From assembly GCA_015064085.1 (NCBI GenBank), contig SVSX01000001.1, forward strand, positions 14,172 through 78,171: a DNA stretch of 64,000 nt. The letters are read 5' to 3'. Below are positions 5,279 to 22,177 of the stretch, in pieces. Each line of letters begins with the position of its first letter. Position 1 is the first letter of the stretch. The position numbers and the translations under genes were made by a program. Below the pieces are notes generated by a model. The model was given only the letters and a program-made list of their open reading frames with translations, searched no databases and was not told the origin of the DNA. The stretch is from Oscillospiraceae bacterium. GTDB taxonomy: Bacteria > Bacillota > Clostridia > Oscillospirales > CAG-272.

Positions 5279-7330
5279 TTACGCCTGCTTATATTTCTCG
5301 ATGATCTTAGGAGCGATGTTAGCGGGAACTGTGTCATATCCCGTTACAGTGTACTCAAACGATCCTCTTCCCTGTGTCATAGCGCGAAGAGCTATCGGAT
5401 AGTCAACGATCTCTGCCTTGGGAGCAGTTGCGTGAACTATTGTGTATCCCTTCTTGGGAGCGGCATCCATACCCATAACCGCGCCGCGGCGCTTGTTAAG
5501 GTCACCCATTACGTCACCGACAAGGGACTCGGGAACTGTGATATCCATATCGCCCACGGGCTCAAGGATCACAGGAGCTGCAAGCTCAAGACACTTCTTA
5601 TACGCGATACTTGCCGCGGTCTTGAAGGAGATCTCATCAGAGTCAACGTCGTGGTAAGAACCGTCGTAAAGGTCAGCAGCGAGCTTAACGAGCGGGAAGC
5701 CAGCAACACCCTTAGCCATCGAGTCCTGAAGTCCCTTCTCTACTGCGGGATAGAAGTTCTTCGGAACTGTTCCGCCGACAACAGATACCGTGAAGGTAAG
5801 TCCGTCGTCCTCACCGGGGGCAAATCTGATCTTAACGTGACCGTACTGACCCGATCCGCCGTTCTGCTTCTTATGCTTTCCTTCAACGTCGACCTTCTTT
5901 GTGATCTTCTCTCTGTAAGCCATCTTGGGCTCGTCATACTGAATATTTACGCCGAATCTGCTCTTAAGCTTTGCCTCAAGAACCGCAAGGTGCATATCGC
6001 CCTGTCCGCTAATGAGCATCTGCTTTGTTTCGGAGTTATTTTCAAACTCAAGTGTAAGATCCTCTTCGATCATTCTCATGATACTCTGGGAGATCTTGCC
6101 CTCATCCTTAGCTGTAAGCGGAACCATAGCCTTTACGTAGTAGGAGTTGGGGTACTCGATGGGAGCAAACTTCAGCTCCTTGTTCCAGGTGAGTGTGTCG
6201 TTTGTATTTGTAGACGTAAGCTTAGCTACCATACCGATATCGCCGCAAGCAAGCTCGTCGACCTCGGTCTGCTTCTTACCGTTCATAATATAGATATGAG
6301 CAAGCTTTTCGCTGTCGCCCGTTGTGTTGTTCTTCATAAGGAGATCGCGCTTTACAGTACCGTTCATTACCTTGAAATAGGACATCTTTCCTACGAAGGG
6401 ATCGGCAACCGTCTTGAATACGAAGAGCGAGGGCTCGCCTTCGGGAGTGATCTCTATCTCGTCACCGTTCTCAAGCATCTCAACCTTCTTTGCGGTATGT
6501 CTCGGGAAGGACTCCGCGATCTTATCAAGAAGCGTCCATACGCCCCAGAGCTTTGCAGCCGCGCCGCAGAATACGGGAACGATATCGCCGTGGATAATTC
6601 CCTCGTGAACCGCGTTGATAGCTTCCATATGTGTTATTTCTTCGCCCTCGAAGTACTTCATCATAAGGTCCTCGTCTGTACTTGCGACAGCTTCCATAAG
6701 CATATCTCTGTACTTTTCAACCGCCTCCATAGACTCCTCGGGAATGATCTCTACGCTGTGACGTCCGTTAGCGTCGAAAACGTGAGCACTCTGGTCGATA
6801 AGGTCGATACAACCCTTGACCTCGCCGTCCTTGACCATAGGAATGGTGAGAGGACAGATGTGCTTACCGAAGGTTACGTGAAGATCGTCGAGAACTCTCG
6901 CGAAACGAGCCTCGTTATCGTCAAACTTGTTGATGAAGAAGGCGCGGGGCAGTCCTGCCTCGTCAGCATAGTTCCAGGCAAGCTCTGTTCCTATCTCGAT
7001 TCCTGCCTTACCGTCAACAACGATGATAGCGCTGTCGGCAACTCTGAGACCCTGCTTGACCTCACCAACGAAATCAAGGTAACCGGGAGTATCGATAATG
7101 TTGATCTTTGTATCCTTCCAGGTCGTATTCAGAAGCGAAGCAGAGAGCGAGAAGCCTCTCTTGATCTCTTCGGGATCAAAGTCGGAAACTGTGTTTCCGT
7201 CAGCGATCTTACCAAGTCTGTCAGATCCTCCGCAAATATATATCATTGCCTCAGCGAGAGAGGTCTTTCCGCATCCTCCGTGTCCGAGCAACGCAATATT
7301 TCTTATTTTTTTTGTTTCAATAACCGCCAT
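5279..7330 (-). CDS. elongation factor G family GTPase (stand-alone paralog, not in an rpsL-rpsG-fusA context)
   Basis: Motifs GHGGCGKTSL, DTPGYLDF and NKFD, followed by EF-G domains II-V. The ATG at 7330 has GAAAGGAGGAAGACC upstream. The ORF-track start at 7357 is probably too long. Confidence 0.85.
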   Translation of the reverse strand: MAVIETKKIRNIALLGHGGCGKTSLAEAMIYICGGSDRLGKIADGNTVSDFDPEEIKRGFSLSASLLNTTWKDTKINIIDTPGYLDFVGEVKQGLRVADSAIIVVDGKAGIEIGTELAWNYADEAGLPRAFFINKFDDNEARFARVLDDLHVTFGKHICPLTIPMVKDGEVKGCIDLIDQSAHVFDANGRHSVEIIPEESMEAVEKYRDMLMEAVASTDEDLMMKYFEGEEITHMEAINAVHEGIIHGDIVPVFCGAAAKLWGVWTLLDKIAESFPRHTAKKVEMLENGDEIEITPEGEPSLFVFKTVADPFVGKMSYFKVMNGTVKRDLLMKNNTTGDSEKLAHIYIMNGKKQTEVDELACGDIGMVAKLTSTNTNDTLTWNKELKFAPIEYPNSYYVKAMVPLTAKDEGKISQSIMRMIEEDLTLEFENNSETKQMLISGQGDMHLAVLEAKLKSRFGVNIQYDEPKMAYREKITKKVDVEGKHKKQNGGSGQYGHVKIRFAPGEDDGLTFTVSVVGGTVPKNFYPAVEKGLQDSMAKGVAGFPLVKLAADLYDGSYHDVDSDEISFKTAASIAYKKCLELAAPVILEPVGDMDITVPESLVGDVMGDLNKRRGAVMGMDAAPKKGYTIVHATAPKAEIVDYPIALRAMTQGRGSFEYTVTGYDTVPANIAPKIIEKYKQA

Positions 7331-7547: not shown

Positions 7548-8339
7548 TTAGCTCAATTTTTCCCGCAAAAACTCGACAATTTTCTTTTCTTCTCTTGAAA
7601 TCTTGACCTGAGAGAGTCCAAGCGCGTCGGCGGTCTGTTGCTGAGTCATATCTCGGTAGTAGCGAAGCAAAACAATCTTCTGCCATTGAGAAGGCATCTG
7701 CGAAATTGCCTCGCCGAGAGCTATTTTGTCTCTGAGGCGCTCGAGCTCGGTCTCGCTCTCAACGTCAGGAATGAGCGCTCCCACCTCTACCCCTTCGCCG
7801 TCGGTGGAGAAAGCCTTGTCGGATAGGGATATTATCGGCGAGGAAGCATCAAGGGCGATAGCCGCCTCCTCGGGGCTGACCGAGCATAGCTCTGCCAGCT
7901 CGTCGATATGCGCCTCCCTGCCCTCGGATGACAGTATCCTCGCGCGTTCGTTCATTATCATAGCCCCAAGCCTTTTGTAGTATCTCCCCACCTTTATCGG
8001 CCCTTCGTCTCTGATATATCTCCGTATCTCTCCGAAGATAAGGGGCACGGCATAGGTGGAAAAGCTTGTACCTCTCTCAAGGTCAAAGCTTCTGATCGCC
8101 TTTATCATTCCTATCGTTCCTATCTGCATCAGGTCCTCCATATCAACGCCTCTGTCGCGAAAGCGCATCGCGATACTGCGCACAAGACCTCTGTTGGCAT
8201 CAAGGAGAAGCTCGGTGGCGCGCATCGCGTCGGTCTCGTCACCGCTCTGGGCGCGGCTGAGCAGCTCTCGGTTGAATTCGTACCCCACCCTGCTCTCGGC
8301 AGGCTGTATCATTTCACTCACAGGATCATCTTCCTTCAA
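7548..8339 (-). CDS. sigF: RNA polymerase sporulation sigma factor F
   Basis: Third gene after spoIIAA and spoIIAB. It has sigma-70 regions 2 to 4 (FSTYAVPLIFGEIRRYIRD, QQQTADALGLSQVKISREEKK). Confidence 0.85.
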   Translation of the reverse strand: MKEDDPVSEMIQPAESRVGYEFNRELLSRAQSGDETDAMRATELLLDANRGLVRSIAMRFRDRGVDMEDLMQIGTIGMIKAIRSFDLERGTSFSTYAVPLIFGEIRRYIRDEGPIKVGRYYKRLGAMIMNERARILSSEGREAHIDELAELCSVSPEEAAIALDASSPIISLSDKAFSTDGEGVEVGALIPDVESETELERLRDKIALGEAISQMPSQWQKIVLLRYYRDMTQQQTADALGLSQVKISREEKKIVEFLREKLS

Positions 8340-8772
8340 ATTTTTTTATAAGCGTTACGCTGCTTCCGTGACCTGCCTTGGAGCGGACTCTTACGCTGTC
8401 GCAGAAGCTTTCCATAACGGTAAAGCCCATTCCGCTTCGCTCATTAGCCGCGTCGGTGGTAAAGAGAGGCTGTCTCGCCTGCTTAACGTCCTCGATCCCG
8501 CAGCCGCGATCCCTTATCTCAACCGACACACTTCTGTTGTCAAACAGCTTCACGTTTATGTATACGACACCTATCCTGTCGCGATAGGCGTGGACGATGC
8601 AGTTTGTGACCGCCTCCGAGACCGCGCATTTTATATCGGCGATCTCTGTGGCGCTTGGGTCGAGCTGAGCGCAAAAGGCGGCGACGGCAGACCTTGCCAT
8701 AGATTCGTTTACAGACAGCGAGGGCATTTTCAATTTTATTTCGTTAACAAGCTTTCCCTTATCGTTTTTCAT
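8326..8772 (-). CDS. spoIIAB: anti-sigma F factor (serine kinase)
   Basis: 148 aa with the GHKL N-box EAVTNCIVHAY and G-box DRGCGI. It overlaps its neighbours at both ends. Confidence 0.9.
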   Translation of the reverse strand: MKNDKGKLVNEIKLKMPSLSVNESMARSAVAAFCAQLDPSATEIADIKCAVSEAVTNCIVHAYRDRIGVVYINVKLFDNRSVSVEIRDRGCGIEDVKQARQPLFTTDAANERSGMGFTVMESFCDSVRVRSKAGHGSSVTLIKKFEGR

Positions 8773-9101
8773 TGCTCTTTTTCCTCCATTTTTATTATCC
8801 TTCCGAGCCCCGCAAGCTCGAATATCTTAAGAATCCTTTCATTTGGATTTTTCAAGGTCAGCTCCCCGCCGAGTCTCTGCATAAGAGCGTACCGCCCCAT
8901 AATAAGCCCCAGCCCCGAGCTATCCATAAAATCAATGTACCCCAGATCAAGCACTGTTTTCTTAGGTCTCTCTCTGCATATCAGATCGTCGATCTCGCCT
9001 CTGACGCTTACAGCGTTATGGTGATCTATCTCACCGCGGAGCGCTACGGTAAGAACTCCGCTGTCGATCACCGATTCAAATTTACAGTTTCTGTTTGTCA
9101 T
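8769..9101 (-). CDS. spoIIAA: anti-sigma F factor antagonist (STAS domain)
   Basis: 110 aa with the phospho-serine motif DFMDSSGLGLI. It is the first gene of the spoIIA operon. Confidence 0.9.
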   Translation of the reverse strand: MTNRNCKFESVIDSGVLTVALRGEIDHHNAVSVRGEIDDLICRERPKKTVLDLGYIDFMDSSGLGLIMGRYALMQRLGGELTLKNPNERILKIFELAGLGRIIKMEEKEQ

Positions 9102-9189
9102 TTTAACCTCCTTGCCTTTAAAGCAACTCTATTTTAACACCTCAAGCGTGAGAAATTTGTCATATTGGGGAACGAATAAAAAAATAAAA

Positions 9190-9225
9190 GGGCTGTCGCA
9201 AACGATTTTCTCATTTGCGACAGCC
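9190..9225 (-). terminator. terminator hairpin of the GCTGTCNCAAAT family
   Basis: GGGCTGTCGCAAA..TTTGCGACAGCC. On the minus strand it is followed by CTTTTATTTTTT. It lies downstream of the lipoprotein gene. Confidence 0.7.
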
Positions 9226-9324
9226 ATAATTTACTGTCTTTCAGTCCCCAAGCCTATCGGCGAGGGGAGAAATATTCAGTTAGCTTGGGACTCGGTGCTT
9301 TTATACCGAGGAATTGTATCTTTT

Positions 9325-10227
9325 TCAATCAATATATTGCAGGATCGTGTCAAGCTCGGATGTGTCATATATACTGTTTTTGGATGATATCCTATATGAG
9401 TTCGAATCGGATATTCGTGACAGCGCAATTATATATTCTTGCTTTAATTTCACTGAATCCAAGCGAAGCTCAACCATGATCTCATTTGTCTCAGTATCTC
9501 CCTTGTAGGTTTCCACGACCGAGCAAACGTAATATCCCGTCACACTATTCGACGGATTGTCTTTTTTGGATGTGGGTATGAGCTTTACAACATATTCCGA
9601 CTTAGAGACAACATCTTCAAGATCCGTCGATTCAATATATGGATCTCCGTAATACTCAACACCGTCCGCATTCTGTGAATTAGAAATGACATTTTTAGTA
9701 TATTCTATAACCTTTTCGGGTTTTTGTGATTTAAAAAACGAAAGCTCTGAGTGACCCGATAACCTTTCATTTCCGTATATAACTATCTTTTCTTCACCGT
9801 TTAACGGAATATAGGGTCTTGATGATACAAGATGGTAAATATCATTGTCGTAATACACCGAAATATGTCTTGCGAGCAGCAGCAAATATTCTTCACCAAC
9901 AGAATAATCGGGGTCGGTAAACGAATAATTTTTATCGGCAACCCCAACTAATATTCGTTCTGACTCAACGTATATTTTTTTGGCAGTTGTATCTCCTTTG
10001 TACTGCTCCACCACATCAAACTCATATATGACTTCTCTTTTATTGTTTTGCGCGGATACGCACTTTCCCTTAAGAATGTTCGTAGCATTATCAATTGACT
10101 TTTCAAAGGAATGATACATTACTGTCTCGCTACCTGTGATTTCTTTGCCTTTTAGCGGATCATATTGAGAGCAGGCAGAAAGAGTCAGTGCAAGCAATAA
10201 AACTGCTATAATAAATATTCTTTTCAT
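9325..10227 (-). CDS. lipoprotein with an internally duplicated domain
   Basis: Signal peptide plus lipobox MKRIFIIAVLLLALTLSAC. Two related segments are each centred on VV-E-x-YKGDT. Confidence 0.7.
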   Translation of the reverse strand: MKRIFIIAVLLLALTLSACSQYDPLKGKEITGSETVMYHSFEKSIDNATNILKGKCVSAQNNKREVIYEFDVVEQYKGDTTAKKIYVESERILVGVADKNYSFTDPDYSVGEEYLLLLARHISVYYDNDIYHLVSSRPYIPLNGEEKIVIYGNERLSGHSELSFFKSQKPEKVIEYTKNVISNSQNADGVEYYGDPYIESTDLEDVVSKSEYVVKLIPTSKKDNPSNSVTGYYVCSVVETYKGDTETNEIMVELRLDSVKLKQEYIIALSRISDSNSYRISSKNSIYDTSELDTILQYID

Positions 10228-10446
10228 AATGTTTCCTCCTTAGCGATATACTTGCTGCATATGCTATCTATCATAATCGGTTATCTAATATTTGTTCAGC
10301 TTTCCTTAAATCGTCCGAGGGATTGAAAACAAGATAATACTCTTTTATTGCGTACCACCGTTTGGAATCTCAAAGGTCTTCTCTAACCATTCAGCTTTGG
10401 GCATATCTCGCCACCTTGCCCAACGAATCGTAAAAGAGGAAGAGTA

Positions 10447-10728
10447 TCAGGGGAATAACAGCAACGGATCAGTTGTCCACGAAATATAAAACGCAATCGC
10501 AAAAAAAGCAAATATCAAAACAGCTAAAATTCCTGGTATCAAAGAGAAAATGATATTCTTCCTTCGTTCTTTGGGCATGTTTGCGCGTATGATCAGAAGA
10601 ACAGCGGACAAAGATAGCAAAATCACGCTAGGTAGCGTTACGATCATCTGGTTTATATCAAAGAAAAATACGTTATTCATTGCAAATCCTTTCCCATATA
10701 AAATCTGTGAATGCATGAGCAATAGCAT
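10447..10728 (-). CDS. small membrane protein (2-3 TM)
   Basis: 93-aa hydrophobic ORF. Its ATG overlaps the upstream stop (TGATG), which suggests translational coupling. Confidence 0.5.
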   Translation of the reverse strand: MLLLMHSQILYGKGFAMNNVFFFDINQMIVTLPSVILLSLSAVLLIIRANMPKERRKNIIFSLIPGILAVLIFAFFAIAFYISWTTDPLLLFP

Positions 10729-11180
10729 CAGCTTGCGTTGACGTTGTTAATATATCTTCTTTTGTCTAGGGCTTTACGCAGAATTCGGATTGCAAGCGAA
10801 ACGCCCATTCCTATAAGATATAATACCAATGTCAACGGAGCGAATATGCACGTGATAATCAATATTCCCCAAAGGTCGTCATGAACGTTATAACCGAAAA
10901 AACGCGTAAATGCAACGAGCCAAGCTGTTACCACAGAACTTATATAAAAGCCTATAATACAGAAAAGTCTGTCTACTATTGCTCTTTTAAGTGGCTGTTT
11001 CCCTTTTTTGCTAACGATTTTATCGCTATAGTATCCTGCAAGAAAAAATGTCAGTATTTCGATTGGAACAAAGACAAAAAAGAATCCAACAGTAAAAACT
11101 CCCATTTGAACAAGATAGGATACTATAAGCCAAATACCGTAAATAATTAAATATTTTTTTGCGATAGGGTCATTTTTCAT
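10728..11180 (-). CDS. membrane protein (4 TM)
   Basis: 150-aa ORF with AAAGGAGC upstream of the ATG. I recognise no family. Confidence 0.5.
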   Translation of the reverse strand: MKNDPIAKKYLIIYGIWLIVSYLVQMGVFTVGFFFVFVPIEILTFFLAGYYSDKIVSKKGKQPLKRAIVDRLFCIIGFYISSVVTAWLVAFTRFFGYNVHDDLWGILIITCIFAPLTLVLYLIGMGVSLAIRILRKALDKRRYINNVNAS

Positions 11181-14106: not shown

Positions 14107-15396
14107 TTACTTATTTTTTACCGCCTCAAGTGCCTGTTCGATATCCGCAATAATGTCGTCGGCGTTCTCTATTCCCACAGAGAAACGAATGAGGTCGGGG
14201 CTTACTCCCGCGTCAACAAGCTGCTCGTCGGAAAGCTGACGGTGTGTTGTGGAGGCGGGGTGAAGGACACAGGTCCTTGCGTCGGCAACGTGGGTCACCA
14301 CTGCCGCAAGCTTCAGAGAATCCATAAATTTGGTTGCCGCTTCTCTTCCGCCCTTGATACCGAAGCAGATAACACCGCAAGTGCCGTTCGGCATATACTT
14401 TTTTGCAAGATCGTAATACTTGCTCGAGGGGAGAGACGGATAGTTGATCCAGGAGATCATATCGTTAGACTCAAGGTACTTTGCGACCTTGGTTGCGTTC
14501 TCGGCGTGGCGAGGAACGCGGAGGTGCAGTGTTTCAAGTCCGAGATTGAGAAGAAAGGCATTCTGAGGAGACTGCATAGAGCCAAGGTCTCTCATAAGCT
14601 GAACGAGGCACTTGGTGATATATGCCGAGCTTCCGAAGCTCTTTGTGTAGGTCAGACCGTGGTAGGAATCGTCGGGAGTGGTGAGTCCGGGGAATTTTTC
14701 AGCGTGAGCATCCCAGTCGAACTTACCGCCGTCAACGACTACGCCGCCGAGGGCACAAGCGTGACCGTCCATATATTTTGTGGTCGAGTGAACCACGATA
14801 TCCGCGCCAAACTCAAAGGGTCTGAGGTTTATAGGCGTCGGGAAGGTATTGTCCACTATCAGCGGAACGCCGTGAGAGTGAGCTATCTTCGCGAATTTTT
14901 CAATATCGAGAACGATAAGAGCGGGATTGGAGACCGTTTCGGCAAACACAGCCTTGGTATTCTCCTTGAAAGCCGCGTTGAGTGTCTCTTCATCGTCGTC
15001 GGGATGAACGAAGGTAAAGTCTATACCGAGCTTCTTCATAGTTACCGAGAAGAGGTTGAACGTTCCACCGTAGATAGTCGACGCGGCAACAACGTGGTCG
15101 CCTGCCGAACAGATATTGAATATCGAATAGAAGCTTGCCGCCTGCCCCGACGAGGTGAGCATAGCGCCCACACCGCCCTCAAGCTCCGCGATCTTTGCCG
15201 CTACACCGTCACAGGTAGGGTTTGCGAGTCTTGTGTAAAAATATCCGCTCTCCTTGAGGTCAAAGAGATTTCCCATCTGCTCAGACGACTCATATTTGAA
15301 GGTCGTGCTCTGAACTATAGGCAAGACTCTCGGTTCGCCGTTTTTGGGAGTGTATCCTGCCTGGACACACTTTGTTTCGATCTTATAATTTGACAT
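14107..15396 (-). CDS. metY: O-acetylhomoserine sulfhydrylase (PLP-dependent)
   Basis: 429 aa of the Cys/Met-metabolism PLP family, with HSTTKYMDGH carrying the PLP lysine. Confidence 0.9.
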   Translation of the reverse strand: MSNYKIETKCVQAGYTPKNGEPRVLPIVQSTTFKYESSEQMGNLFDLKESGYFYTRLANPTCDGVAAKIAELEGGVGAMLTSSGQAASFYSIFNICSAGDHVVAASTIYGGTFNLFSVTMKKLGIDFTFVHPDDDEETLNAAFKENTKAVFAETVSNPALIVLDIEKFAKIAHSHGVPLIVDNTFPTPINLRPFEFGADIVVHSTTKYMDGHACALGGVVVDGGKFDWDAHAEKFPGLTTPDDSYHGLTYTKSFGSSAYITKCLVQLMRDLGSMQSPQNAFLLNLGLETLHLRVPRHAENATKVAKYLESNDMISWINYPSLPSSKYYDLAKKYMPNGTCGVICFGIKGGREAATKFMDSLKLAAVVTHVADARTCVLHPASTTHRQLSDEQLVDAGVSPDLIRFSVGIENADDIIADIEQALEAVKNK

Positions 15397-15487: not shown

Positions 15488-16855
15488 TTAAACAATCGGC
15501 ATCGGCAAAGGCAAAGCGAGATCGTTGTAGGTTACAAGATGTATATTGTCGTAATTCTCTGTTGTCTCATATATAGGAGCTCTTGCCTTCACAACGCTTC
15601 CGCTTGAGTTGATACCGTCGCCCCTGTCACCGTAGTGACCGCTTATAGGCATCTGCCAGATATAAGCCTTTGCGCCGCACGCCGAATAAAATTGAGGAGA
15701 GAGACTGCTCTTGCCGTGATGAGGCACAAATATAACGTCGGAGGATACCTTACCCTCGGGAAGTGCCATAAGCTCGTTATTTGTGAAGGTCTCGCCGTCG
15801 CCCGCAAGCATAAAGCTCTGCTCACCGTTATAATCAAGCTTATAAACAACGCTTGTGTCATTCACCGTTGAGACGACCTCGTGATCATACGTTGGAACTC
15901 GCAGAACCTCGACCGTCATCTCGTCAACCGAGATAACGTCTCCGACCTTTACAGTGCAGACTTTTGCTCCGAGTGTACTTTCGGAGTCAAGTATACAGGA
16001 CACTCTTTCAAAATCCTGCTCTGCTTCCTTGAGCCTGTATTTTTCGTATGCATCCTTAGTGAGGAAAGCGCAATATGCCTTCTCAACCTTCAAGGAGGAT
16101 CTCAGTGCCTCGTTTTTGCAAAGCTCCACGAAAGCGCCAACGTGTCCCTCGTGGGGATGAGAGAGCAGCCAAGCAGACACGGTAGGTATCTCCTCACCCG
16201 ATATCCTTCTGAGAGCATAAAGAAGTCTTTCGGTCTCGGCTTTTCCACCACCGTCATATACGATGAGCTTTCCGCTGCCTGTCTTGAATATAAGACCCGA
16301 GTTACTTGCCACAAGATCCGACGAAGCGGCAAGTGAATACACTGAAGCGCCGTCGACAACATTTATATCTTTATTCGCGCGGTTTTCCGCAGTAAACTCC
16401 AGCTCGTATTTCTCGGGCATACAAAGCTCACTGTTTTCGTTATAGCATTTATACACGTAGTTCATAAAGTCATATCCGAGTACATCCTCAACGAACTTAT
16501 AAGCCGCGTAAACAGTTCCGACTCCACCGTCCTTCATTGTACCGTAAGATCTGAAGGGCGGCTCGACCTCTATGGGAGCGCCCATACCGCAAAGGTAGAC
16601 TCTGTCTGAAGCCTTCTTTATGACGAACTCATAGAGTCTGTTAAAATGTCTCTCAAAGGCAAATCCGTCAAGCTTCTCTCGCGATGTCTTTCCCACAACT
16701 ATCTCAAGTGCCTCGGGGGCTGTGGTATCGTCAACTATCGGTATCTTTTTTCCGCATACCAGCTTTATGTTCTTCTGGAGAAAATATGCGGCGCGGGTCT
16801 CGCTGAAAATGGCGTTTTTCGGAATAACTATTCTATAATCAACTATTCTTTTCAT
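15488..16855 (-). CDS. MBL-fold protein with a GH20b/DUF4838-like N-terminal domain, paralog 1
   Basis: N-terminus YRIVIP..ETRAAYFLQKNIKLVCGKKIPIV..LEIVVGKTSRE. The C-terminal MBL motifs are SHPHEGH (Asp replaced by Gly) and VPHHG. Confidence 0.6.
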   Translation of the reverse strand: MKRIVDYRIVIPKNAIFSETRAAYFLQKNIKLVCGKKIPIVDDTTAPEALEIVVGKTSREKLDGFAFERHFNRLYEFVIKKASDRVYLCGMGAPIEVEPPFRSYGTMKDGGVGTVYAAYKFVEDVLGYDFMNYVYKCYNENSELCMPEKYELEFTAENRANKDINVVDGASVYSLAASSDLVASNSGLIFKTGSGKLIVYDGGGKAETERLLYALRRISGEEIPTVSAWLLSHPHEGHVGAFVELCKNEALRSSLKVEKAYCAFLTKDAYEKYRLKEAEQDFERVSCILDSESTLGAKVCTVKVGDVISVDEMTVEVLRVPTYDHEVVSTVNDTSVVYKLDYNGEQSFMLAGDGETFTNNELMALPEGKVSSDVIFVPHHGKSSLSPQFYSACGAKAYIWQMPISGHYGDRGDGINSSGSVVKARAPIYETTENYDNIHLVTYNDLALPLPMPIV

Positions 16856-16871
16856 TTCTTTTACCTCGTTT

Positions 16872-18242
16872 TCAATGTATGGGCATAGGCAACGGCACGG
16901 AAAGTATACCGTCGGTAAACAAATAAACGTTTTCCTTTTTCGGTTTAAGCTGCATCATAAAGTCTCTTGTTTTGATAACGCCCGTGTTGTGAGTGTTGAG
17001 CTCTGTTCCGTTATCGCTATACCAGAATCTGTCCACGATAGGCCAGATATATGCCTTGGCATCGATAAGCTCATAGCACCTTCTCGACACGTTTCCACAG
17101 CCGTGATGTCCAACCTGAACAATATCGCTCTTAAGCTTATCAGCTCGGTTATTTACAAGATCCTCATTGCAGGATCTCTCGGCATCGCCGAGGAGCATTA
17201 TCGTCTGTCCACCGTCATAGGTCAGCTTATAAACGACACTTGAGTCATTCATATTCATCCTTGAAAAATCCTCTCTTGTGGGCACGTGAATGACCTCGAT
17301 CTCTATCTCATCGACCTTTATGATATCGCCGACCTTAACTGTATGTACCCTCGCGCCGACAGTGCTTTCCGAATTTAGAAGGTTATTTCGGATCTCTACC
17401 CACGTAGCCTTCCTTTCGGTTGAAAGAGTTGTATAAAATTCCTCGGTAGCAAGATCGCAATAAAAATCGTCAACTGTTATACAGCTTCTGAATTCCTCAT
17501 CGATACACAGTCTGTTATACATTCCGAAATGGTCACCGTGAAGATGCGAGAAGATCCACGCCGTAACGTGGGGCGTATCTGTACCCGCTATCTTTTTCAG
17601 CCCTCTCATAAAGCGATCGCTTTCGTGGACTCTGCCCCCATCATAAACTATTATCTTACCTTCACGTGTCCTGAATATATATCCGTGGGTATTTCCCGTG
17701 AGAAGCTCCGAAACGTTGAATGCGAACATTGCCGCTCCCTTTATGTCCTCAGGCTCTTGGGCTCGGAGAACGTCTCTTTTTAAGCTGTATTCAAAGTCCT
17801 CCGGTATTTCAAGCTCCTCATTCTCGGGAAAGCTTTCGTATGCCGAATTCATAAAATCGTATCCGAGAACCTTTTCCACAAATTTATACGCCGCTATCGA
17901 GCAGCCCGACGAGCCGTCCTCATAAAGCTTTGCGGCACTGTACTCCTCGGGATACGGCTTTCGCTCACCAAGCCCTGTAAGGTAAAATCTGTCTCCTTTG
18001 TTTTGCAGAGTGTATTCCCACATTATGTGGTTCTGTCTTTCAAAATCGATACCGTCGAGCGCCTCTCGGTTGGTCTCTCCAACGACGATCTCAAGGGGTC
18101 TCGGAGGCTCTGTGTCTCTGACTGTCTCAAGGGTTATTCCCGTAACAAGACGCACGTTATCTCTTATAAACGCCGCCGCGCGAAGCTCATTTGTATTTGC
18201 TTTCTCGGAAATAACTATTCTGTAATCTCTAAGCTTGCTCAT
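16872..18242 (-). CDS. MBL-fold protein with a GH20b/DUF4838-like N-terminal domain, paralog 2
   Basis: Canonical HxHxDH motif (SHLHGDHFG) and VGHHGCGN. It ends in PLPMPIH. Confidence 0.6.
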   Translation of the reverse strand: MSKLRDYRIVISEKANTNELRAAAFIRDNVRLVTGITLETVRDTEPPRPLEIVVGETNREALDGIDFERQNHIMWEYTLQNKGDRFYLTGLGERKPYPEEYSAAKLYEDGSSGCSIAAYKFVEKVLGYDFMNSAYESFPENEELEIPEDFEYSLKRDVLRAQEPEDIKGAAMFAFNVSELLTGNTHGYIFRTREGKIIVYDGGRVHESDRFMRGLKKIAGTDTPHVTAWIFSHLHGDHFGMYNRLCIDEEFRSCITVDDFYCDLATEEFYTTLSTERKATWVEIRNNLLNSESTVGARVHTVKVGDIIKVDEIEIEVIHVPTREDFSRMNMNDSSVVYKLTYDGGQTIMLLGDAERSCNEDLVNNRADKLKSDIVQVGHHGCGNVSRRCYELIDAKAYIWPIVDRFWYSDNGTELNTHNTGVIKTRDFMMQLKPKKENVYLFTDGILSVPLPMPIH

Positions 18243-18254
18243 ACCTTTATCTCC

Positions 18255-19622
18255 TTAGTATATCGGCATCGGCAATGGGAAGGAAAGAATATCATCTATA
18301 TTGAGATATACGTTCTCCTTCTTTGGGTGAAGCTGCATCATAAAATCTCTCGTACGGATAACTCCCGTATTGTGAGTGTTCAGACCCGTACCGTTGTCGC
18401 TGTACCAGAATCTCTCGCCTATAGGCCAGATATAAGCGTCAGCACCTATAAGCTCATAGCATCTTCTCGACACGTTGCCGCAGCCGTGGTGTCCTATCTG
18501 TACCACATCGCTCTTCAGCTTATCCGCCATATTGTTCACAAGGTCCATATCACATACGTACTCGGCGTCACCGAGAAGCATAATGCTCTGCTTTCCGTCA
18601 TAGATAAGCTTATAAACGACGCTTGAATCATTGATATCCATTTCCCTCGCGAACTCCATTTCGGGCACGTGAAGCACCTCTATCTCGATCTCATCGACCT
18701 TTATAACGTCGCCCTTCTCTACCGTATGCACTTTTGCGCCAACTGTACTCTCAGAATCGAGAAAGCGCTGGCGAATTTCTGCAAAGTATGCCCATTTTTC
18801 GCAGGAAAGCTCGGTATAGTATTCCTTTGTAATAAGGTTACAATAGAAGTTGTCTACAGTTATCTGAGAACGGAACTCCTCGTCACGGCAAAGACGGTCG
18901 TACGTTCCCCAATGGTCGGGGTGCATATGGGAGAAGATCCAGGCGGTAACGTGAGGCTTTTCGCTTCCCGACACCTTTTTGAGTATCCTCATAAATCTGT
19001 CACTCTCGTTCCACTGTCCGCCATCCATAACAACGATCTTTCCCGATCTCGTTCTGAATATAAGGCTCTGGGTATTCCACATTATATCCTCGGAGCAGTT
19101 CATACTGTACATAGCCGCGCCTTCAATATCGGCAGGCTCTTGAGCCCTGAGCTTTTTACGCGTGAAATCGAACGCATAATTTTCGGGGATCTCGAGCTCT
19201 TCGTTTTCGGGAAAGCTCTCGTAAGCCTCGTTTATAAAATCATATCCGAGTATATCCTCAACAAAACGGTATGCAGCCATCGACGTGCCTATTGATCCGT
19301 CCTCGTACAGTACCCCGGCGTTATATTTCTCGGCGGGCGCTCTTTTTGTTCCAAGACCCGTGAGATAAAAGCGTGTTCCGCACATACGCATTACATATTC
19401 CCACATTGCCGCGTCTGTCCTTTCAAAGACAATGTCGTCAAGGGCTTCTCTGTTGGTCTCACCAACCGCGATCTCAAGCTCAACGGGGGCTTCGGTATCT
19501 CTCACTATCTCGAGTGTCTTTCCGCAAACGAGCCTTATGTTGTCACGCAGAAAAGCTGCGGAGCGAAGCTCGTTTGTGTTAGCGTTTTCAGAAACAACGA
19601 TCCTGTAATCCTTTAATTTCAT
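18255..19622 (-). CDS. MBL-fold protein with a GH20b/DUF4838-like N-terminal domain, paralog 3
   Basis: SHMHPDHWG and IGHHGCGN motifs. I prefer the ATG at 19622 (MKLKDYRIVV), which is preceded by GGAGGT. The ORF-track start at 19730 adds 36 unlikely residues. Confidence 0.6.
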   Translation of the reverse strand: MKLKDYRIVVSENANTNELRSAAFLRDNIRLVCGKTLEIVRDTEAPVELEIAVGETNREALDDIVFERTDAAMWEYVMRMCGTRFYLTGLGTKRAPAEKYNAGVLYEDGSIGTSMAAYRFVEDILGYDFINEAYESFPENEELEIPENYAFDFTRKKLRAQEPADIEGAAMYSMNCSEDIMWNTQSLIFRTRSGKIVVMDGGQWNESDRFMRILKKVSGSEKPHVTAWIFSHMHPDHWGTYDRLCRDEEFRSQITVDNFYCNLITKEYYTELSCEKWAYFAEIRQRFLDSESTVGAKVHTVEKGDVIKVDEIEIEVLHVPEMEFAREMDINDSSVVYKLIYDGKQSIMLLGDAEYVCDMDLVNNMADKLKSDVVQIGHHGCGNVSRRCYELIGADAYIWPIGERFWYSDNGTGLNTHNTGVIRTRDFMMQLHPKKENVYLNIDDILSFPLPMPIY

Positions 19623-19655: not shown

Positions 19656-19684
19656 ATTATAACACCCCAAAAAACAAAAGTCAA
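19656..19684 (-). promoter_or_regulatory. near-consensus sigma-A promoter for the MBL cluster (TTGACT-17-TGtTATAAT)
   Basis: The reverse complement reads TTGACTTTTGTTTTTTGGGGTGTTATAAT, about 30 nt upstream of the paralog-3 start. Confidence 0.6.
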
Positions 19685-19774: not shown

Positions 19775-19976
19775 CTATTGTTTCAGAAACACAAATAAAA
19801 CTGCAAATTAAGTATAATTCTCCTTGATTTGCAGACACTAACATTACAAATCTGTAAAACCAAGGAGATTTTATATATATGAAAGCCACAGGAATTGTTA
19901 GAAGAATAGATGATCTTGGCAGGGTCGTTATTCCCAAGGAAATAAGAAGAACTATGAAAATCCGCGAGGGAGAACC
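19775..19976 (+). repeat. direct repeat, left copy: spoVT upstream region plus the first ~31 codons
   Basis: Collinear with 21516-21717 at a constant offset of 1741 nt. I count only three substitutions before homology decays after GAGGG. Confidence 0.9.
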
Positions 19977-20043
19977 GTCAAAAATAACATTGACACCTTT
20001 CGACGGCGATACACAGTATGGCGAAAAATCAAAAGCGAGGTGA
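19879..20043 (+). pseudogene. truncated spoVT 5' copy: a 54-aa ORF with an AbrB-type N-terminus and an unrelated tail
   Basis: My translation is MKATGIVRRIDDLGRVVIPKEIRRTMKIREGEPSKITLTPFDGDTQYGEKSKAR. It has the same RBS and leader as intact spoVT, and a terminator follows immediately. Confidence 0.7.
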
Positions 20044-20060
20044 AATTTACCTCGCTTTTA
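20031..20060. terminator. bidirectional terminator hairpin
   Basis: AAAAGCGAGGT-GAAATTT-ACCTCGCTTTTA, between the truncated ORF (+) and the M20 peptidase gene (-). Confidence 0.65.
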
Positions 20061-20065
20061 TATTT

Positions 20066-21412
20066 TTAGCCGCACCACTTGTACACTGCCAAAGCCAAAA
20101 ATTTGATGTAATTCAGATAGTCTACTGTATCGATGAATTCATTTGGTGCATGAGCAGGGCCGTTGCCGGGACCGCATATCAGACACGGTATGTTGCCGCG
20201 ATTGCCAAGATGTCTTGCGTCAAGTGCGGAAACAGCGCCAATAGGCAAGGTCTTGCCGAGCATATCCTCTCCTGCACTGAGAAGAACGGGAAGCAGATCA
20301 TGTCCTTCGGGGTAAACGTACGCATCGTCATAGTGAAGGAAAGAAAGCTCGGGTCTGTGCTCGGACAGCCAGGGATCATTATCCGAAGCTTGGTTGATAG
20401 CACTGCGCAATAGCTCCTTAATTCTTTTTATTCCGTCATCACCAACACCCATTGCGGCTGTGAAATAAGCTACGCCACTGATCGAGCACTCTCGCGCCGT
20501 ATTGGTTGCATAAGTTCCACCGTTAATAGTGCCGATTCCCAACGACAAACGAACTCCGTCTGCATTTTCCTGTTGCTCCATTTTGCAAAGAGCATTAATT
20601 ACAAGCGCCGCCTTCTCAATGGCACTTACGCCGTACATCTGAGCACCGTGCCAGCGCCCACCCGTATGGACCTCTCTTCCGGATAAGTGAATTTTCCAAT
20701 ATATTCCGCCTCCCGACTGGGTTCTTATCAAAAATCCACCGTCGGCACAAATAGCGGCGTCTGCCGTATATCCTTTGGCAACGCAAGCAAGAGTGCCGTT
20801 TCCTGCGTGTTCTTCGTTAACAGCGCTTTGGCATATTACGTCTCCGCGCAATTTTACGCCGATCTCCTGTAAAGCTTTAAGAGCCTTGACACAAGCCAAT
20901 ATACCGCCCTTCATATCACTTGAACCTCGTGCATAAATACGAGTGCCTACTTGCTCCGCTCCAAAAGGATCGTGTTCCCAGCGGTTTATATCTCCCACAG
21001 TAACCGAATCAATATGTCCGTTCAAAATGAGCGAGCGCCCACCGCCGGTACCTTTCAATGTACCTACTACGTTGGGGCGATCCTTGTAATTGAGCTTGTC
21101 AGCATATCCGGATTCAAGCCATTTCTCGTACGTGCAAATATCCGAGGTGGGTATAACGAGATCAAGCTCGGGCTCCCAGCTGGTAGGAAACTGTGCTATT
21201 TCAGGATATTTTTCAAACAACTCCTTAACGTCAGGCTCAAACACGTCAACATCCATGCCAAGCTTTTCGTATTGTGCCTTTACAAATTTCTGCGCCTCGC
21301 CTTCGTGTCCCGTAAGACTTGGAATACGTAAAAAATCTTTTAATTCATTAATGAGATATTCTTGGTTTTCATCTACCCAAGATGCAATCATTTGTTCAAT
21401 TTTATTTTTCAT
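20066..21412 (-). CDS. M20 family metallopeptidase / ArgE-DapE-type deacylase
   Basis: 448 aa with LNGHIDSV, ARGSSDMKGG and NEEHAGNGT metal-ligand motifs. Confidence 0.8.
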   Translation of the reverse strand: MKNKIEQMIASWVDENQEYLINELKDFLRIPSLTGHEGEAQKFVKAQYEKLGMDVDVFEPDVKELFEKYPEIAQFPTSWEPELDLVIPTSDICTYEKWLESGYADKLNYKDRPNVVGTLKGTGGGRSLILNGHIDSVTVGDINRWEHDPFGAEQVGTRIYARGSSDMKGGILACVKALKALQEIGVKLRGDVICQSAVNEEHAGNGTLACVAKGYTADAAICADGGFLIRTQSGGGIYWKIHLSGREVHTGGRWHGAQMYGVSAIEKAALVINALCKMEQQENADGVRLSLGIGTINGGTYATNTARECSISGVAYFTAAMGVGDDGIKRIKELLRSAINQASDNDPWLSEHRPELSFLHYDDAYVYPEGHDLLPVLLSAGEDMLGKTLPIGAVSALDARHLGNRGNIPCLICGPGNGPAHAPNEFIDTVDYLNYIKFLALAVYKWCG

Positions 21413-21515
21413 AGAAGATCCTTTTCAATATAATAGAAATAGAAATAATAGAATATTACAAAACTTTGCGCTTATTATAACATGCGCCTAAAGGCTTGTC
21501 AATACAAATACAAAA

Positions 21516-21717
21516 CTATTGTTTCAGAAGCACAAATAAAACTGCAAATTAAGTATAATTCTCCTTGATTTGCAGACACTAACATTACAAATCTGTAAAA
21601 CCAAGGAGAATTTATATATATGAAAGCCACAGGAATTGTTAGAAGAATAGATGATCTTGGCAGGGTCGTTATTCCCAAGGAAATAAGAAGAACTATGAGA
21701 ATCCGCGAGGGTGACCC
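21516..21717 (+). repeat. direct repeat, right copy (native spoVT promoter and 5' end)
   Basis: See the left copy at 19775-19976. Confidence 0.9.
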
Positions 21718-22177
21718 TCTCGAGATATACACCGATCGCGAGGGAGAGGTCATCTTCAAAAAATATTCGCCTATCGGAGAGCTCTCTTCCTTCGCCGCTC
21801 AGTACGCCGACACCTTATTTAAGACCTGCAATATGTCTGTAATTATTTCTGACAGAGACGCTGTCATTGCTTCGGCGGGTGTTTCAAAAAAGGAGTACAA
21901 CGAAAAACGGATTTCCGATGCCACTGAAAGAATAATTGAAAGCAGAAATCTTTACGTCCTCAGAGACGGAGCGGAAAAGCTCTTCCCTCTCGCTGACGGC
22001 GGAAGCCATTTTATAAGCTGTGCTATGCCCATAATCAGCGAGGGAGACATAATCGGATGTGTTGCCTCGCTTACCGATGCCTCTAAGGAAAAAAGCGCAG
22101 ACCGTCTCTCCTCCGAGCTCGAGTCCAAGCTCATTCTCGCGGCAGCGGGATTTCTCGGACGACAATTGGAAAACTGA
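21620..22177 (+). CDS. spoVT: stage V sporulation protein T (AbrB N-domain plus GAF-like C-domain)
   Basis: MKATGIVRRIDDLGRVVIPKEIRRTMRIREGDPLEIYTDREGEVIFKKYSPIGEL... is nearly identical at the N-terminus to B. subtilis SpoVT. The C-terminus is AAGFLGRQLEN. Confidence 0.9.
   Translation: MKATGIVRRIDDLGRVVIPKEIRRTMRIREGDPLEIYTDREGEVIFKKYSPIGELSSFAAQYADTLFKTCNMSVIISDRDAVIASAGVSKKEYNEKRISDATERIIESRNLYVLRDGAEKLFPLADGGSHFISCAMPIISEGDIIGCVASLTDASKEKSADRLSSELESKLILAAAGFLGRQLEN

Follow-up and report, generated by a model that had tools for sequence, protein, structure and literature searches.

A second spoVT 5' end in an Oscillospiraceae bacterium as a probable residue of site-specific element traffic

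Introduction

Intervening elements that use a serine recombinase (here, a large serine recombinase, LSR) are known from several sporulation genes: skin in sigK, with the recombinase SpoIVCA, SPbeta in spsM, with SprA/SprB, and also vfbin, vrin, gin in gerE, and yin in yabG (PMC4191935, PMC5595907, PMC10747680). The described sporulation-gene intervening elements all reside in mother-cell genes (PMC4191935). Our literature search did not find a paper on an intervening element in spoVT. In Bacillus subtilis and Clostridioides difficile, spoVT is a forespore-expressed gene.

Here, we analyzed a window of 64,000 nucleotides, the whole stretch taken from contig SVSX01000001.1 (positions 14,172 to 78,171) of the Oscillospiraceae bacterium assembly GCA_015064085.1, in which the spoVT promoter and 5' end occur twice, on either side of an M20 peptidase gene. 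The locus resembles the skin and SPbeta type in that relatives carry an LSR at the edge of a phage-like element, beside the 3' part of a sporulation gene that has been split; the att sites share a short core, the arms of attP are inverted, and the gene would be restored by precise excision. It differs in its target, spoVT being a forespore gene, and in that the window lacks the element and has only a stranded attL beside an intact spoVT.

Results

The spoVT 5' region is duplicated

The features of the locus, by position in the window, are as follows.

15488-19622: three-gene MBL-fold cluster (Pfam Lactamase_B on three paralogs), left neighbor of the stub
19656-19684, minus strand: sigma-A promoter of the MBL cluster (11/12 consensus, with TG)
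19775-19976, plus strand: left repeat, with the spoVT promoter, RBS, and codons 1-31
19812-19816 and 19834-19840, plus strand: left-repeat promoter, -35 GTATA and -10 GACACTA with a 17-nt spacer
19879-20043, plus strand: 54-aa chimeric stub ORF, SpoVT residues 1-31 and a degraded element-derived tail
19966-19997, plus strand: attL, with the end of the B arm, core GAGGGAGAACCG, and P' arm ATAACATTGACACC
19998 onward to 20060, plus strand: element-tail remnant, homologous to stub tails and hairpins in f63, G184, G280, G365, and others
20030-20060, both strands (terminator scan): bidirectional terminator hairpin, dG -25.4 kcal/mol, z -7.3
20066-21412, minus strand: M20/M25/M40 peptidase gene, the cargo (Pfam PF01546 and PF07687, 6.5e-25)
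21474-21502, minus strand: M20 sigma-A promoter, TTGACA-17-TATAAT with TG (12/12), divergent from the spoVT promoter
21516-21717, plus strand: right repeat; here the spoVT promoter, RBS, and codons 1-31 lead into the intact gene
21620-22177, plus strand: intact spoVT, 185 aa (Pfam SpoVT_C, 8.7e-36, and AbrB/MazE domain)
Around 21707-21740: unoccupied attB inside the intact spoVT, GAGGGTGACCCTCTCGAGATATACACC

A repeat search, an alignment, and BLAST agreed with the initial annotation that positions 19775-19976 and 21516-21717 form a two-copy direct repeat, with 202 nt per copy and a spacing of 1741 nt. The copies match at 197 of 202 nt, and their longest perfectly matching run is 86 nt. The earlier count of only three substitutions holds for the first 196 nt (19790 A/G, 19871 T/A, and 19958 A/G, the last of these being R27K) and misses two further mismatches in the final 6 nt (19971 A/T and 19974 A/C). 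The right copy does continue into a full-length spoVT, with both of its domains; the gene is whole rather than split, and the sole anomaly is the additional 5' fragment. ORF, fold, and promoter scans also confirmed that the left copy is truncated and is followed by a bidirectional terminator and an opposite-strand M20 gene with its own promoter (the JGI call of this gene uses a 441-aa start at 21391). Elsewhere in the 2.02-Mb genome, no further copies of the repeat, tail, or hairpin were found.

The spoVT promoter block is conserved among congeners, and by our reading the left-repeat promoter is forespore sigma F/G-like. The N-terminal part of the stub ORF has a Pfam MazE/AbrB match and carries the changes R27K and D31E. 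Compared with homologous stubs, in which the ORF has 58 aa, the stub has an 11-nt deletion that breaks the frame.

The source genome is a MAG, in 89 contigs and 82% complete, and 200-nt repeats are prone to misjoining, as would suit an assembly artifact or a strain chimera within the MAG. However, an exact shared run of at most 86 nt means that large k-mers separate the copies, and both junctions (MBL cluster, left repeat, tail, and M20 3' end; M20 5' end, right repeat, and spoVT) occur at 100% identity in at least six other metagenome samples, assembled by different pipelines (JGI 3300031555, on a 170-kb contig, 3300032167, 3300024268, 3300018475, and 3300024270; ENA ERZ27248436). One 1.5-kb junction contig (L055) has 99.9% identity instead. 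Since the same junctions were assembled independently in these samples, the layout is not an artifact, a concern raised initially to which we now attach a negligible probability.

RecA-type homologous recombination between the copies could delete the 1741-nt unit; the deletion form was absent from all assembled contigs. The similarity of the copies had been taken to imply a recent event, which stands only in part: the stub tail has a frame-breaking deletion, and the layout is fixed in every sample seen. An identity of 97.5% is equally compatible with duplication in place, with gene conversion, and with import from a very close relative.

LSR elements split spoVT where the left copy ends

In six to seven congeners, spoVT is split at codon 31/32 by LSR elements. 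The LSRs of these congeners have Resolvase, Recombinase, and Zn_ribbon_recom domains, and a conserved upstream ORF of 77-82 aa is a candidate directionality factor. In G003, G010, G012, G019, and G024, the LSR frame continues as a fusion into spoVT residues about 24-185; these five genomes and G137 have an LSR adjoining the spoVT 3' part, and in G018 and G011, the same split is seen where contigs end. Among species-representative genomes of the Oscillospirales, LSR homologs abut the spoVT 3' part at 74 of 80 loci, a set that includes the cultured Ruminococcus flavefaciens FD-1 and Dysosmobacter segnis BX15. The relatives of the LSR in IMG/VR are on prophage-form contigs that terminate in the spoVT 3' part.

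The attL, attR, and attB sites have the common core GGYGACCC. The reconstructed attP has the inverted arms GTCAATGTTATCAG / CAGAYAACATTGAC, with the P arm GTCAATGTTATCAG located at the end of the LSR gene and the P' arm ATAACATTGACACC as its inverted repeat. The LSR reading frame of the relatives spans the att core, and in the integrated state, it is a 740-aa ORF fused to spoVT; in the circular state, the LSR would end in the conserved tail that is now joined to the stub. Integrase genes spanning attP are known from Myxococcus phage Mx8 (intP/intX) and from SSV1-type archaeal integrases, which are tyrosine recombinases. The present LSRs share with these a frame that crosses the att core and differ in being serine recombinases, and the excised attP form had no matches in IMG/VR or in 401 genomes of the family.

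The left copy in the window reads CGCGAGGGAGAACCGTCAAAAATAACATTGACACC, that is, B arm, core, and P' arm, and its end coincides with the crossover core (GACCC) of the LSR element family. Positions 19966-19997 join the target 5' part, the common core, and the element arm in the same way as the attL sites of relatives, P' arm included, and match the attL of seven congeners. The attL pattern was found in 28 of 301 family genomes, compared with 0 for a reversed-pattern control, and more than 10 genomes share this end point. Homology thus stops at codon 31/32 because the crossover core of the LSR system lies there, rather than being set, as had been proposed, by the fragment carried on a circle. What the initial annotation called unrelated sequence is the P' arm, tail, and terminator of the element, which follow the core as in the attL junctions of relatives. 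Based on this P' arm, the degraded tail, and the hairpin, the view that the left repeat is a stranded attL of a spoVT-targeting LSR element is well supported.

Across the core, the right copy has the same sequence as the uninterrupted spoVT of relatives; it begins a gene that is not split (attB). The attL crossover maps within GA[A/C]CC of the core. The stub has GAACC versus GACCC at most attL sites, and may no longer be a recombinase substrate. No LSR homolog was detected in the window or in the source genome, whose 82% completeness makes this absence less than certain.

The cargo gene and a single-crossover origin

An M20 ortholog is present in only 2 of the 72 genomes (species) of the genus. 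Copies beside a spoVT promoter occur in L063 (99.8% identical) and L147 (84.5%), and the junction between M20 and this promoter is conserved in both, which belong to other lineages. The L063 copy has its 99.8% identity across the M20 segment, but the adjoining spoVT promoter/stub matches the window at only about 80% and the tail at 77%; these mixed identities possibly reflect recombination or a chimeric contig, and no single model fits them. The M20 ortholog of G018 is 9.5 kb away from the spoVT 5' part, on its upstream side, amid ordinary accessory genes. The gene was on no attL-side contig, and we rejected it as left-end cargo of the congeners' full LSR elements. The compositional comparison proposed initially for the payload gave 47.3% GC for M20 and 47.4% for the genome, with ordinary tetranucleotide usage, which rules out a foreign payload on composition. 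The initial annotation also asked whether the MBL cluster directly adjoins spoVT in relatives: the cluster is sporadic (7 of 72 genomes) and sited elsewhere in other species, and is hence no conserved neighbor of spoVT.

The locus had been explained as a Campbell-type insertion, in which one homologous crossover within the 5' region of spoVT inserted a circle that carried a spoVT 5' fragment and M20. The layout (repeat, insert, repeat, and remainder of the gene) is that expected of a single crossover; a direct duplication of the target segment, its copies 97.5% identical, flanks an insert that could be lost again by recombination between the repeats, as in insertion-duplication generally. There is only one clearly novel junction, between the hairpin and the M20 3' flank (20054/20055); the junction of M20 with the promoter is native in other lineages, and the flanks (HTS-OASS to the left, feoAB and PTS EIIC to the right) are syntenic with G003, which is without M20. 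This explanation is, however, at odds with a homology end that equals the LSR core followed by the P' arm and recurs in unrelated genomes; stubs of nine other genomes end at the same nucleotide, which is unexpected unless the circle already held attL. A refined form supposes just that, the circle being an aberrant excision product (spoVT 5' end, attL tail, and hairpin joined to M20) from a cell that harbored an LSR element. Furthermore, the copies in G125 and G251 are only about 75-80% identical, a poor substrate for homologous crossover, and the 1.54 kb between the copies in the window hold only the terminator, M20, and its promoter, with no replicon, plasmid, vector, or marker functions. We regard a Campbell-type origin, refined or not, as improbable. 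What remains of the original proposal is a trace of integration or recombination that is not a plain tandem duplication; a single crossover as its cause is unsupported as stated.

Similar units without an LSR recur in other genera

The succession of attL stub, hairpin, reverse cargo gene, and intact spoVT, with no LSR, was found in at least eight other genomes from seven other genera, and stubs form arrays of as many as four in a row. Hairpin-type tails that align with the tail and hairpin of the window occur in G125, G184 (four), G237, G251, G280, G340, G355, G365, and L063; in the alignment of the window tail with 11 other stubs, the 11-nt deletion is in the window copy. Seven of eight genomes carry the stub and an intact spoVT on one contig, with the stub 0.8-6.4 kb upstream (1741 nt in the window, which also lacks the LSR), and in G280, the intact gene is on a different contig. 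A cognate LSR was found in none of the eight hairpin-stub genomes (best identity 31%), and no recombinase was seen in the annotated stub arrays, as judged from ORF lists and partial Pfam searches. All retained cargo is on the attL side, and the LSR, on the attR side, is always lost. The 1741-nt core-to-core unit of the window, consisting of the tail, the terminator, the reverse M20 gene with its sigma-A promoter, and the spoVT promoter/5' end, is one of these recurrent units, which lack an LSR and are found, in several genera, between an attL stub and an intact spoVT.

G355 and G037, members of different families, share at 84% identity a block comprising the tail end, the hairpin, a reverse 228-aa gene, promoters, and the spoVT 5' end. 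By our count, the DNA of the stub 5' end diverges from that of the intact 5' end by roughly 20-25% in G125 and G251; the encoded peptides are identical in G125 and differ only by D31E in G251. Hence, at least one copy in these genomes was imported and did not decay in place.

The left copy could alternatively be a maintained, forespore-expressed AbrB-like mini-regulator made of SpoVT residues 1-32 and the conserved tail. The 58-aa ORF is intact in 9 of 11 other aligned hairpin-type stubs (that of G251 has 64 aa and that of L063 lacks a start), most of which retain the promoter and RBS, and its N-terminal part matches MazE/AbrB in Pfam. In the window, however, the frame of the tail is destroyed and the N-terminal part bears two substitutions; moreover, the 31 SpoVT residues cover only about half of an AbrB-type domain. 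The dN/dS of the tail is only about 0.5-0.6, with strong conservation at the nucleotide level, which rules out strong protein-level selection and points to constraint on the DNA or on LSR coding. A maintained mini-gene is therefore very improbable.

Discussion

The locus is probably a record of site-specific traffic of elements at a sporulation gene and not of a simple homologous insertion. The stub would have formed when an LSR element integrated into spoVT, and LSR traffic would then have placed the M20 cargo and a second promoter/5' end between the stub and the spoVT 3' part. We consider this explanation, taken as a whole, likely. The second promoter copy could have come by LSR-mediated hitch-hiking, by homologous capture, or by a local duplication followed by excision.

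In the preferred, hitch-hiking route, a resident element would excise via a more distal attL, thereby capturing the tail, cargo, and spoVT 5' end; the element with the captured unit would integrate into a new spoVT, and proper attL x attR excision would then rebuild the gene and strand the old attL. This route is a model, since neither the attP form nor a composite of a stub and a full element was found in the 401 family genomes or IMG/VR. The partner sites in LSR reactions are attP and attB, or attL and attR, and on this rule we ranked low a further candidate, in which an element-borne replacement 5' end would enter by recombination of an attL-like site with attB.

The same end product would arise by purely local events. 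With an LSR element in spoVT, either the segment from M20 through the spoVT promoter/5' end and attL tail to the hairpin, or the 280-nt stub, would be duplicated; the distal copy would then undergo attL x attR excision, which would rebuild spoVT and leave the proximal attL partnerless. Common events suffice here, excision being the normal reaction of such elements; the near-identity of the copies fits, the junction at 20054/20055 is the joint expected of a tandem duplication, and retention of attL-side cargo with loss of the LSR is as observed throughout. However, because the junction of M20 with the spoVT promoter is native and conserved, a local origin needs an extra step, namely a second novel junction (between the MBL side and the left repeat, 19774/19775) or deletion of one M20 copy. 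It also leaves unexplained the imported 5' ends of G125 and G251 and the block shared across families by G355 and G037, and arrays of four stubs would take four rounds of a two-step accident. An exclusively local origin thus seems unlikely.

Returning to LSR traffic as the preferred explanation, the present state of the locus would be one in which both promoters are predicted to fire in the forespore, the left one driving just the broken 54-aa ORF into the terminator.

A broader reading, which we put forward tentatively and consider doubtful as a whole, is that the spoVT 5' region of Oscillospirales accretes units spread by spoVT-targeting LSR elements. Each unit would run core to core, with LSR tail, terminator, cargo with its own promoter, and spoVT promoter/5' end, would transfer between species through alternative use of stranded attL sites, and would leave spoVT functional on insertion and accumulate in arrays. 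One of these units would be that with M20, still mobilizable by an incoming element, and the elements themselves would be an undescribed, widespread type of intervening element in a forespore-expressed (germline) gene, with a recombinase gene that spans attP.

Accretion of islands at tRNA and tmRNA genes is similar in that repeated insertion at one gene yields truncated target copies that bound cargo, with one functional copy. At spoVT, in contrast, the 5' end and promoter are duplicated rather than the 3' end, the recombinase is of the serine and not the tyrosine type, and the accreted units are all without an integrase. Integron arrays likewise have rows of single-gene units, a repeated recombination site with a hairpin, and a fixed platform. 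However, IntI, attI, and attC are absent here, the site is an LSR att site within coding sequence, and the spoVT units carry their own promoters and are transcribed away from the platform.

For annotation, these findings account for "truncated AbrB/MazE-like" mini-ORFs upstream of spoVT and for 740-aa "recombinase-SpoVT fusion" ORFs in MAGs. In the organism studied here, the locus would be a residue of element traffic, a stranded attL with a predicted live forespore promoter, which has left an accessory peptidase gene inserted next to a core regulator of sporulation and, by virtue of the 200-nt repeats, deletable. Excision of mother-cell intervening elements is not inherited. In contrast, excision in spoVT would be germline, since spoVT is a forespore regulator, and the spoVT-targeting LSR family therefore raises the question of how its elements are kept and how they affect sporulation in gut Clostridia.

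Duplication of the spoVT 5′ end around an M20 peptidase gene

A repeat search recovered two 202-nt repeats, 19775–19976 and 21516–21717, at a constant offset of 1741 nt, exactly matching the coordinates and offset in the initial annotation. Its count of only three substitutions holds for the first 196 nt, where alignment of the copies places them at 19790, 19871, and 19958 (Arg27 to Lys at the last of these), but the final six bases carry two more (19971 and 19974), and the identity between the two copies is 97.5%. As had been read, the right copy continues into a full-length spoVT, which encodes a protein of 185 aa with SpoVT_C and AbrB/MazE domains. The left copy is truncated to a 54-aa ORF that reads into a strong bidirectional terminator (20030–20060; dG −25.4 kcal/mol, z −7.3), beyond which lies the oppositely oriented M20 peptidase gene with its own promoter. 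The whole genome (2.02 Mb, 89 contigs, 82% complete) contains no third copy of the repeat.

20066–21412, minus strand: M20 peptidase gene
21502–21474, minus strand: M20 promoter, perfect TTGACA-17-TGnTATAAT

Both promoter copies of spoVT conserve a GTATA-17-GAYACTA block, which, by its consensus, we take to be a forespore sigma F/G-type promoter. The left promoter would drive only a broken mini-ORF into the terminator.

An assembly artefact, the explanation that the initial annotation had named as fatal to its reading, was rejected: different pipelines recovered the same sequence, with both junction types, from six further samples, in one case on a 170-kb JGI contig. The repeats are predicted to allow RecA-type loss of M20, and no form lacking the M20 unit was present among the assembled contigs.

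Serine recombinase elements split spoVT in relatives

A DNA search of 40 relatives (G, genomes, with G000 the window's own; L, contigs or loci) showed that several congeners carry the 3′ two-thirds of spoVT on one contig and the promoter with the first 31 codons on another, the latter match extending ~21 nt beyond the end of the window's repeat. A 585-aa protein of G024 runs on in frame into the spoVT 3′ part; its Resolvase, Recombinase, and Zn_ribbon_recom domains identify it as a large serine recombinase (LSR).

L040 (G024), 8332–10554: LSR fused in frame to spoVT residues ~24–185, 740-aa ORF

The fusion is also present in G003, G010, G012, and G019, and in G018 and G011 spoVT is broken at the same point, at contig ends. 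Judged by coordinates, the LSR and spoVT share one reading frame at attR in 5/5 genomes. Besides L040, the LSR–spoVT loci include L038, L042, L044, and L046; in the wider LSR-family set (L161–L240), covering Oscillospirales, the spoVT 3′ part adjoins 74 of the 80 loci, including those of the isolates Ruminococcus flavefaciens FD-1, Dysosmobacter segnis BX15, Neopoerus faecalis, and Eubacterium sp. MSJ-21. A phage Phg_2220_C protein and a Lar-like protein are among the products encoded next to the LSR, two LSR/spoVT prophage ends of this kind are classed as viral in IMG/VR, and in G137 the LSR and attL lie ~11.8 kb apart on a single contig. A conserved ORF of 77–82 aa, with no Pfam match, directly upstream of the LSR (G024, L040 8011–8244; G019, L044 7752–8000) is a candidate recombination directionality factor.

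Recombination sites and the identity of the left copy

Alignment of the junctions gave the following sites (slash, junction).

attB: ...CGCGAGGGTGACCC / TCTCGAGATATACACC
attL: ...CGCGAGGGYGACCCG / TCGCAGAYAACATTGACAYC
attR: ...GTGTCAATGTTATCAGYGRCGGCGACCCG / CTCGAGATATA

Within G024 and within G010, the positions at which attL and attR differ confine the crossover to GACCC. Reconstruction of attP gives inverted arms (GTCAATGTTATCAG and CAGAYAACATTGAC), as expected of an LSR site; the excised attP form was found neither in 401 family genomes nor in IMG/VR. The window's left copy (CGCGAGGGAGAACCGTCAAAAATAACATTGACACC; core GAACC) consists of the B arm, the core, and the P′ arm and therefore corresponds to attL, whereas the attB of the right copy is unoccupied. 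We make this assignment, of an LSR attL stub beside an intact attB, with confidence. The initial annotation had read the layout as the single-crossover (Campbell) integration of a circle carrying a 5′ fragment of spoVT; the integration footprint stands, but the homologous single crossover as proposed does not, since the repeat ends at the LSR core and the P′ arm follows. A pattern scan detected attL in 28/301 family genomes, compared with 0 for the reversed-pattern control, and the window's genome (82% complete) has no LSR homologue.

The attL side in relatives always carries a chimeric ORF of 55–61 aa, in which SpoVT residues 1–32 precede a conserved, element-encoded tail. Given the shared reading frame of LSR and spoVT at attR, this tail would form the LSR C terminus in the circular element. 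Two main tail classes stand out among attL-positive genomes. The first ends ...SKRIG... and, in the genomes checked, is accompanied by a split spoVT and a cognate LSR. The second reads ...TLTxFDRFCxAIHSVxERxKAR, with its stop codon within the terminator hairpin, the stem pairs of which show compensatory changes (GCGAGGTG/CACCTCGC, GCGGAGTG/CACTCCGC, and CAGCGCAGT/ACTGCGCTG). The window's stub belongs to this hairpin-type class and has lost the reading frame through the absence of 11 nt relative to the aligned stubs, so that its 54-aa ORF represents a decayed version of a 58-aa ORF that is intact in 9/11 other aligned stubs (exceptions: G251, 64 aa, and contig L063, start lost). The tail has a dN/dS of ~0.5–0.6 and long stretches that are invariant at the nucleotide level, a pattern that points to DNA-level or dual constraint and not to a well-selected small protein.

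Stubs recur upstream of intact spoVT

In seven genomes (G125, G184, G237, G251, G340, G355, and G365), hairpin-type stubs precede an intact spoVT by 0.8–6.4 kb on a single contig, with a row of four in G184; G280 has two stubs on one contig and the intact gene on another. The cognate LSR is absent from all eight genomes (best match, 31% identity). The cargo in stub arrays is usually one or two accessory genes, and the hairpin-adjacent gene often reads away from spoVT, with its own promoter and the stub's hairpin as terminator.

By our count, the stub and the intact 5′ end differ by ~20–25% in DNA in G125 and G251, whereas at the peptide level the two agree fully in G125 and are separated by the single change D31E in G251. 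It follows that one copy or both came from outside instead of decaying in situ. A block running from the tail end through the hairpin, a 228-aa gene, and promoters to the spoVT 5′ end is 84% identical between G355 and G037, members of two different families. The stub architecture is recurrent and at least partly horizontally transferred.

L273 (G355, reverse-complemented), 9444–10317: 228-aa gene block, function unknown
L144 (G037, reverse-complemented), 10277–11150: 228-aa gene block, function unknown

Stubs of similar design in G004 and G037 differ in having the junction at codon 12–14 and another post-junction palindrome, which suggests a second system with a different recombinase using another site in spoVT. 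The small palindrome GGTGTTATAATAACACC follows these stubs, sometimes with the same terminator hairpin.

L144 (G037:C22, reverse-complemented), ~3051, 6204, 8934, and 11051: four codon 12–14 stubs before intact spoVT
L031 (G004), 8129–8189: one codon 12–14 stub before intact spoVT

In two spoVT stubs, codons 6 and 7 are separated by the same GC-rich insert of ~105 nt, which has GCAACAGG repeats on either side and a 92% match in another genome; it may be a small mobile insert.

L271 (G184:C23, reverse-complemented), ~6925–7130 and 14300–14510: ~105-nt insert
L272, 6318–6500: ~105-nt insert

The M20 gene and its flanks

The M20 gene is accessory, with an orthologue in only 2/72 species of the genus. 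Its composition is ordinary for this genome, and the comparison proposed in the initial annotation revealed no foreign signature. ENA contig L147 has an 84.5%-identical M20 followed by the same spoVT promoter region, so the junction between the two is not new. In L063 (JAEIGA010170398.1, a GenBank metagenome contig), the order of features is a 99.8%-identical M20, then the decayed remains of a spoVT promoter/5′ stub, a tail of the hairpin type with its hairpin, and finally a NUDIX gene. The match to the window falls in two pieces meeting at 20054/20055, and the window's one clearly novel junction is therefore that between the hairpin and the M20 3′ flank. Within ~20 nt of the repeat boundary, at the spoVT promoter, identity falls from 99.8% to ~80%. 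The near-identity of M20 implies either that the segment was recently exchanged horizontally or that L063 is chimeric.

The L063 comparison spans window 20054–21576; over 1.4 kb, apart from this 99.8% identical, the sole indel is in the M20 leader, where L063 lacks a 15-nt tandem repeat unit that the window has (AATAGAAATAGAAAT, 21434–21448). The other genes of L063 (NUDIX, HTH) have no homologue in the window's genome.

The flanks of the locus, namely homoserine O-succinyltransferase and O-acetylhomoserine sulfhydrylase on the left and feoAB and a PTS EIIC-like gene on the right, are syntenic with G003, which has an occupied spoVT and no M20. Positions 15488–19622 hold three tandem paralogs, 42–70% identical, of a 455-aa MBL-fold protein, and a fourth copy lies on another contig of the same genome (G000:C69:7259–8623). 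Adjacency of this cluster to spoVT in relatives, raised earlier, was not observed: the family is sporadic (7/72 genus genomes) and elsewhere never adjoins spoVT. In G018, a distant MBL relative sits beside the M20 orthologue. Since M20 and the MBL cluster are both sporadic, the stretch upstream of spoVT is a variable, accessory region.

Discussion

The locus combines an attL stub with an intact attB, lacks an LSR, and carries an M20 gene equipped with its own promoter and served by the stub's terminator. We infer that the core-to-core unit (~19977–21717) was placed by LSR reactions; the whole statement, stub beside attB plus LSR-mediated placement, is in our view probable.

The path that we prefer, though only tentatively, uses canonical reactions alone. 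An element that had inserted on the right-hand side of a pre-existing stub would excise via the distal attL, capturing the tail, cargo, and spoVT 5′ end; the element with its captured unit would then integrate into spoVT of a new host, and proper attL × attR exit would rebuild spoVT and strand the host's old 5′ end. Such hitch-hiking would explain why units never keep the LSR, why stub arrays form, why cargo and the spoVT 5′ end travel together, and why the end point is always at the core. Its composite intermediate was looked for and not found, and the path therefore remains a model. Local duplication spanning attL followed by normal excision would yield the same product, as would homologous capture of an aberrant circle, which refines the Campbell model. 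The 97.5% identity of the copies requires that the donor was very close, or else that gene conversion or duplication in place occurred.

In model species, spoVT is a forespore gene. The spoVT elements of relatives work like the known elements skin, SPbeta, gin, and yin (PMC4191935, PMC5595907, PMC10747680), and all described sporulation intervening elements sit in mother-cell genes (PMC4191935). Unlike these four, the relatives' element targets spoVT, its recombinase gene would span attP (with the tail as LSR C terminus), and its family is very widespread, as reflected in the 74/80 loci abutting the spoVT 3′ part. The literature searched contained no description of a spoVT-intervening element, an absence that is not proof. 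Two defining features of an intervening element were tested at the window locus and neither was found, and we rejected that identity for it. The window locus is a stranded-attL remnant with cargo. It resembles tandem accretion at tRNA genes but lies 5′ of a protein gene and lacks integrases.
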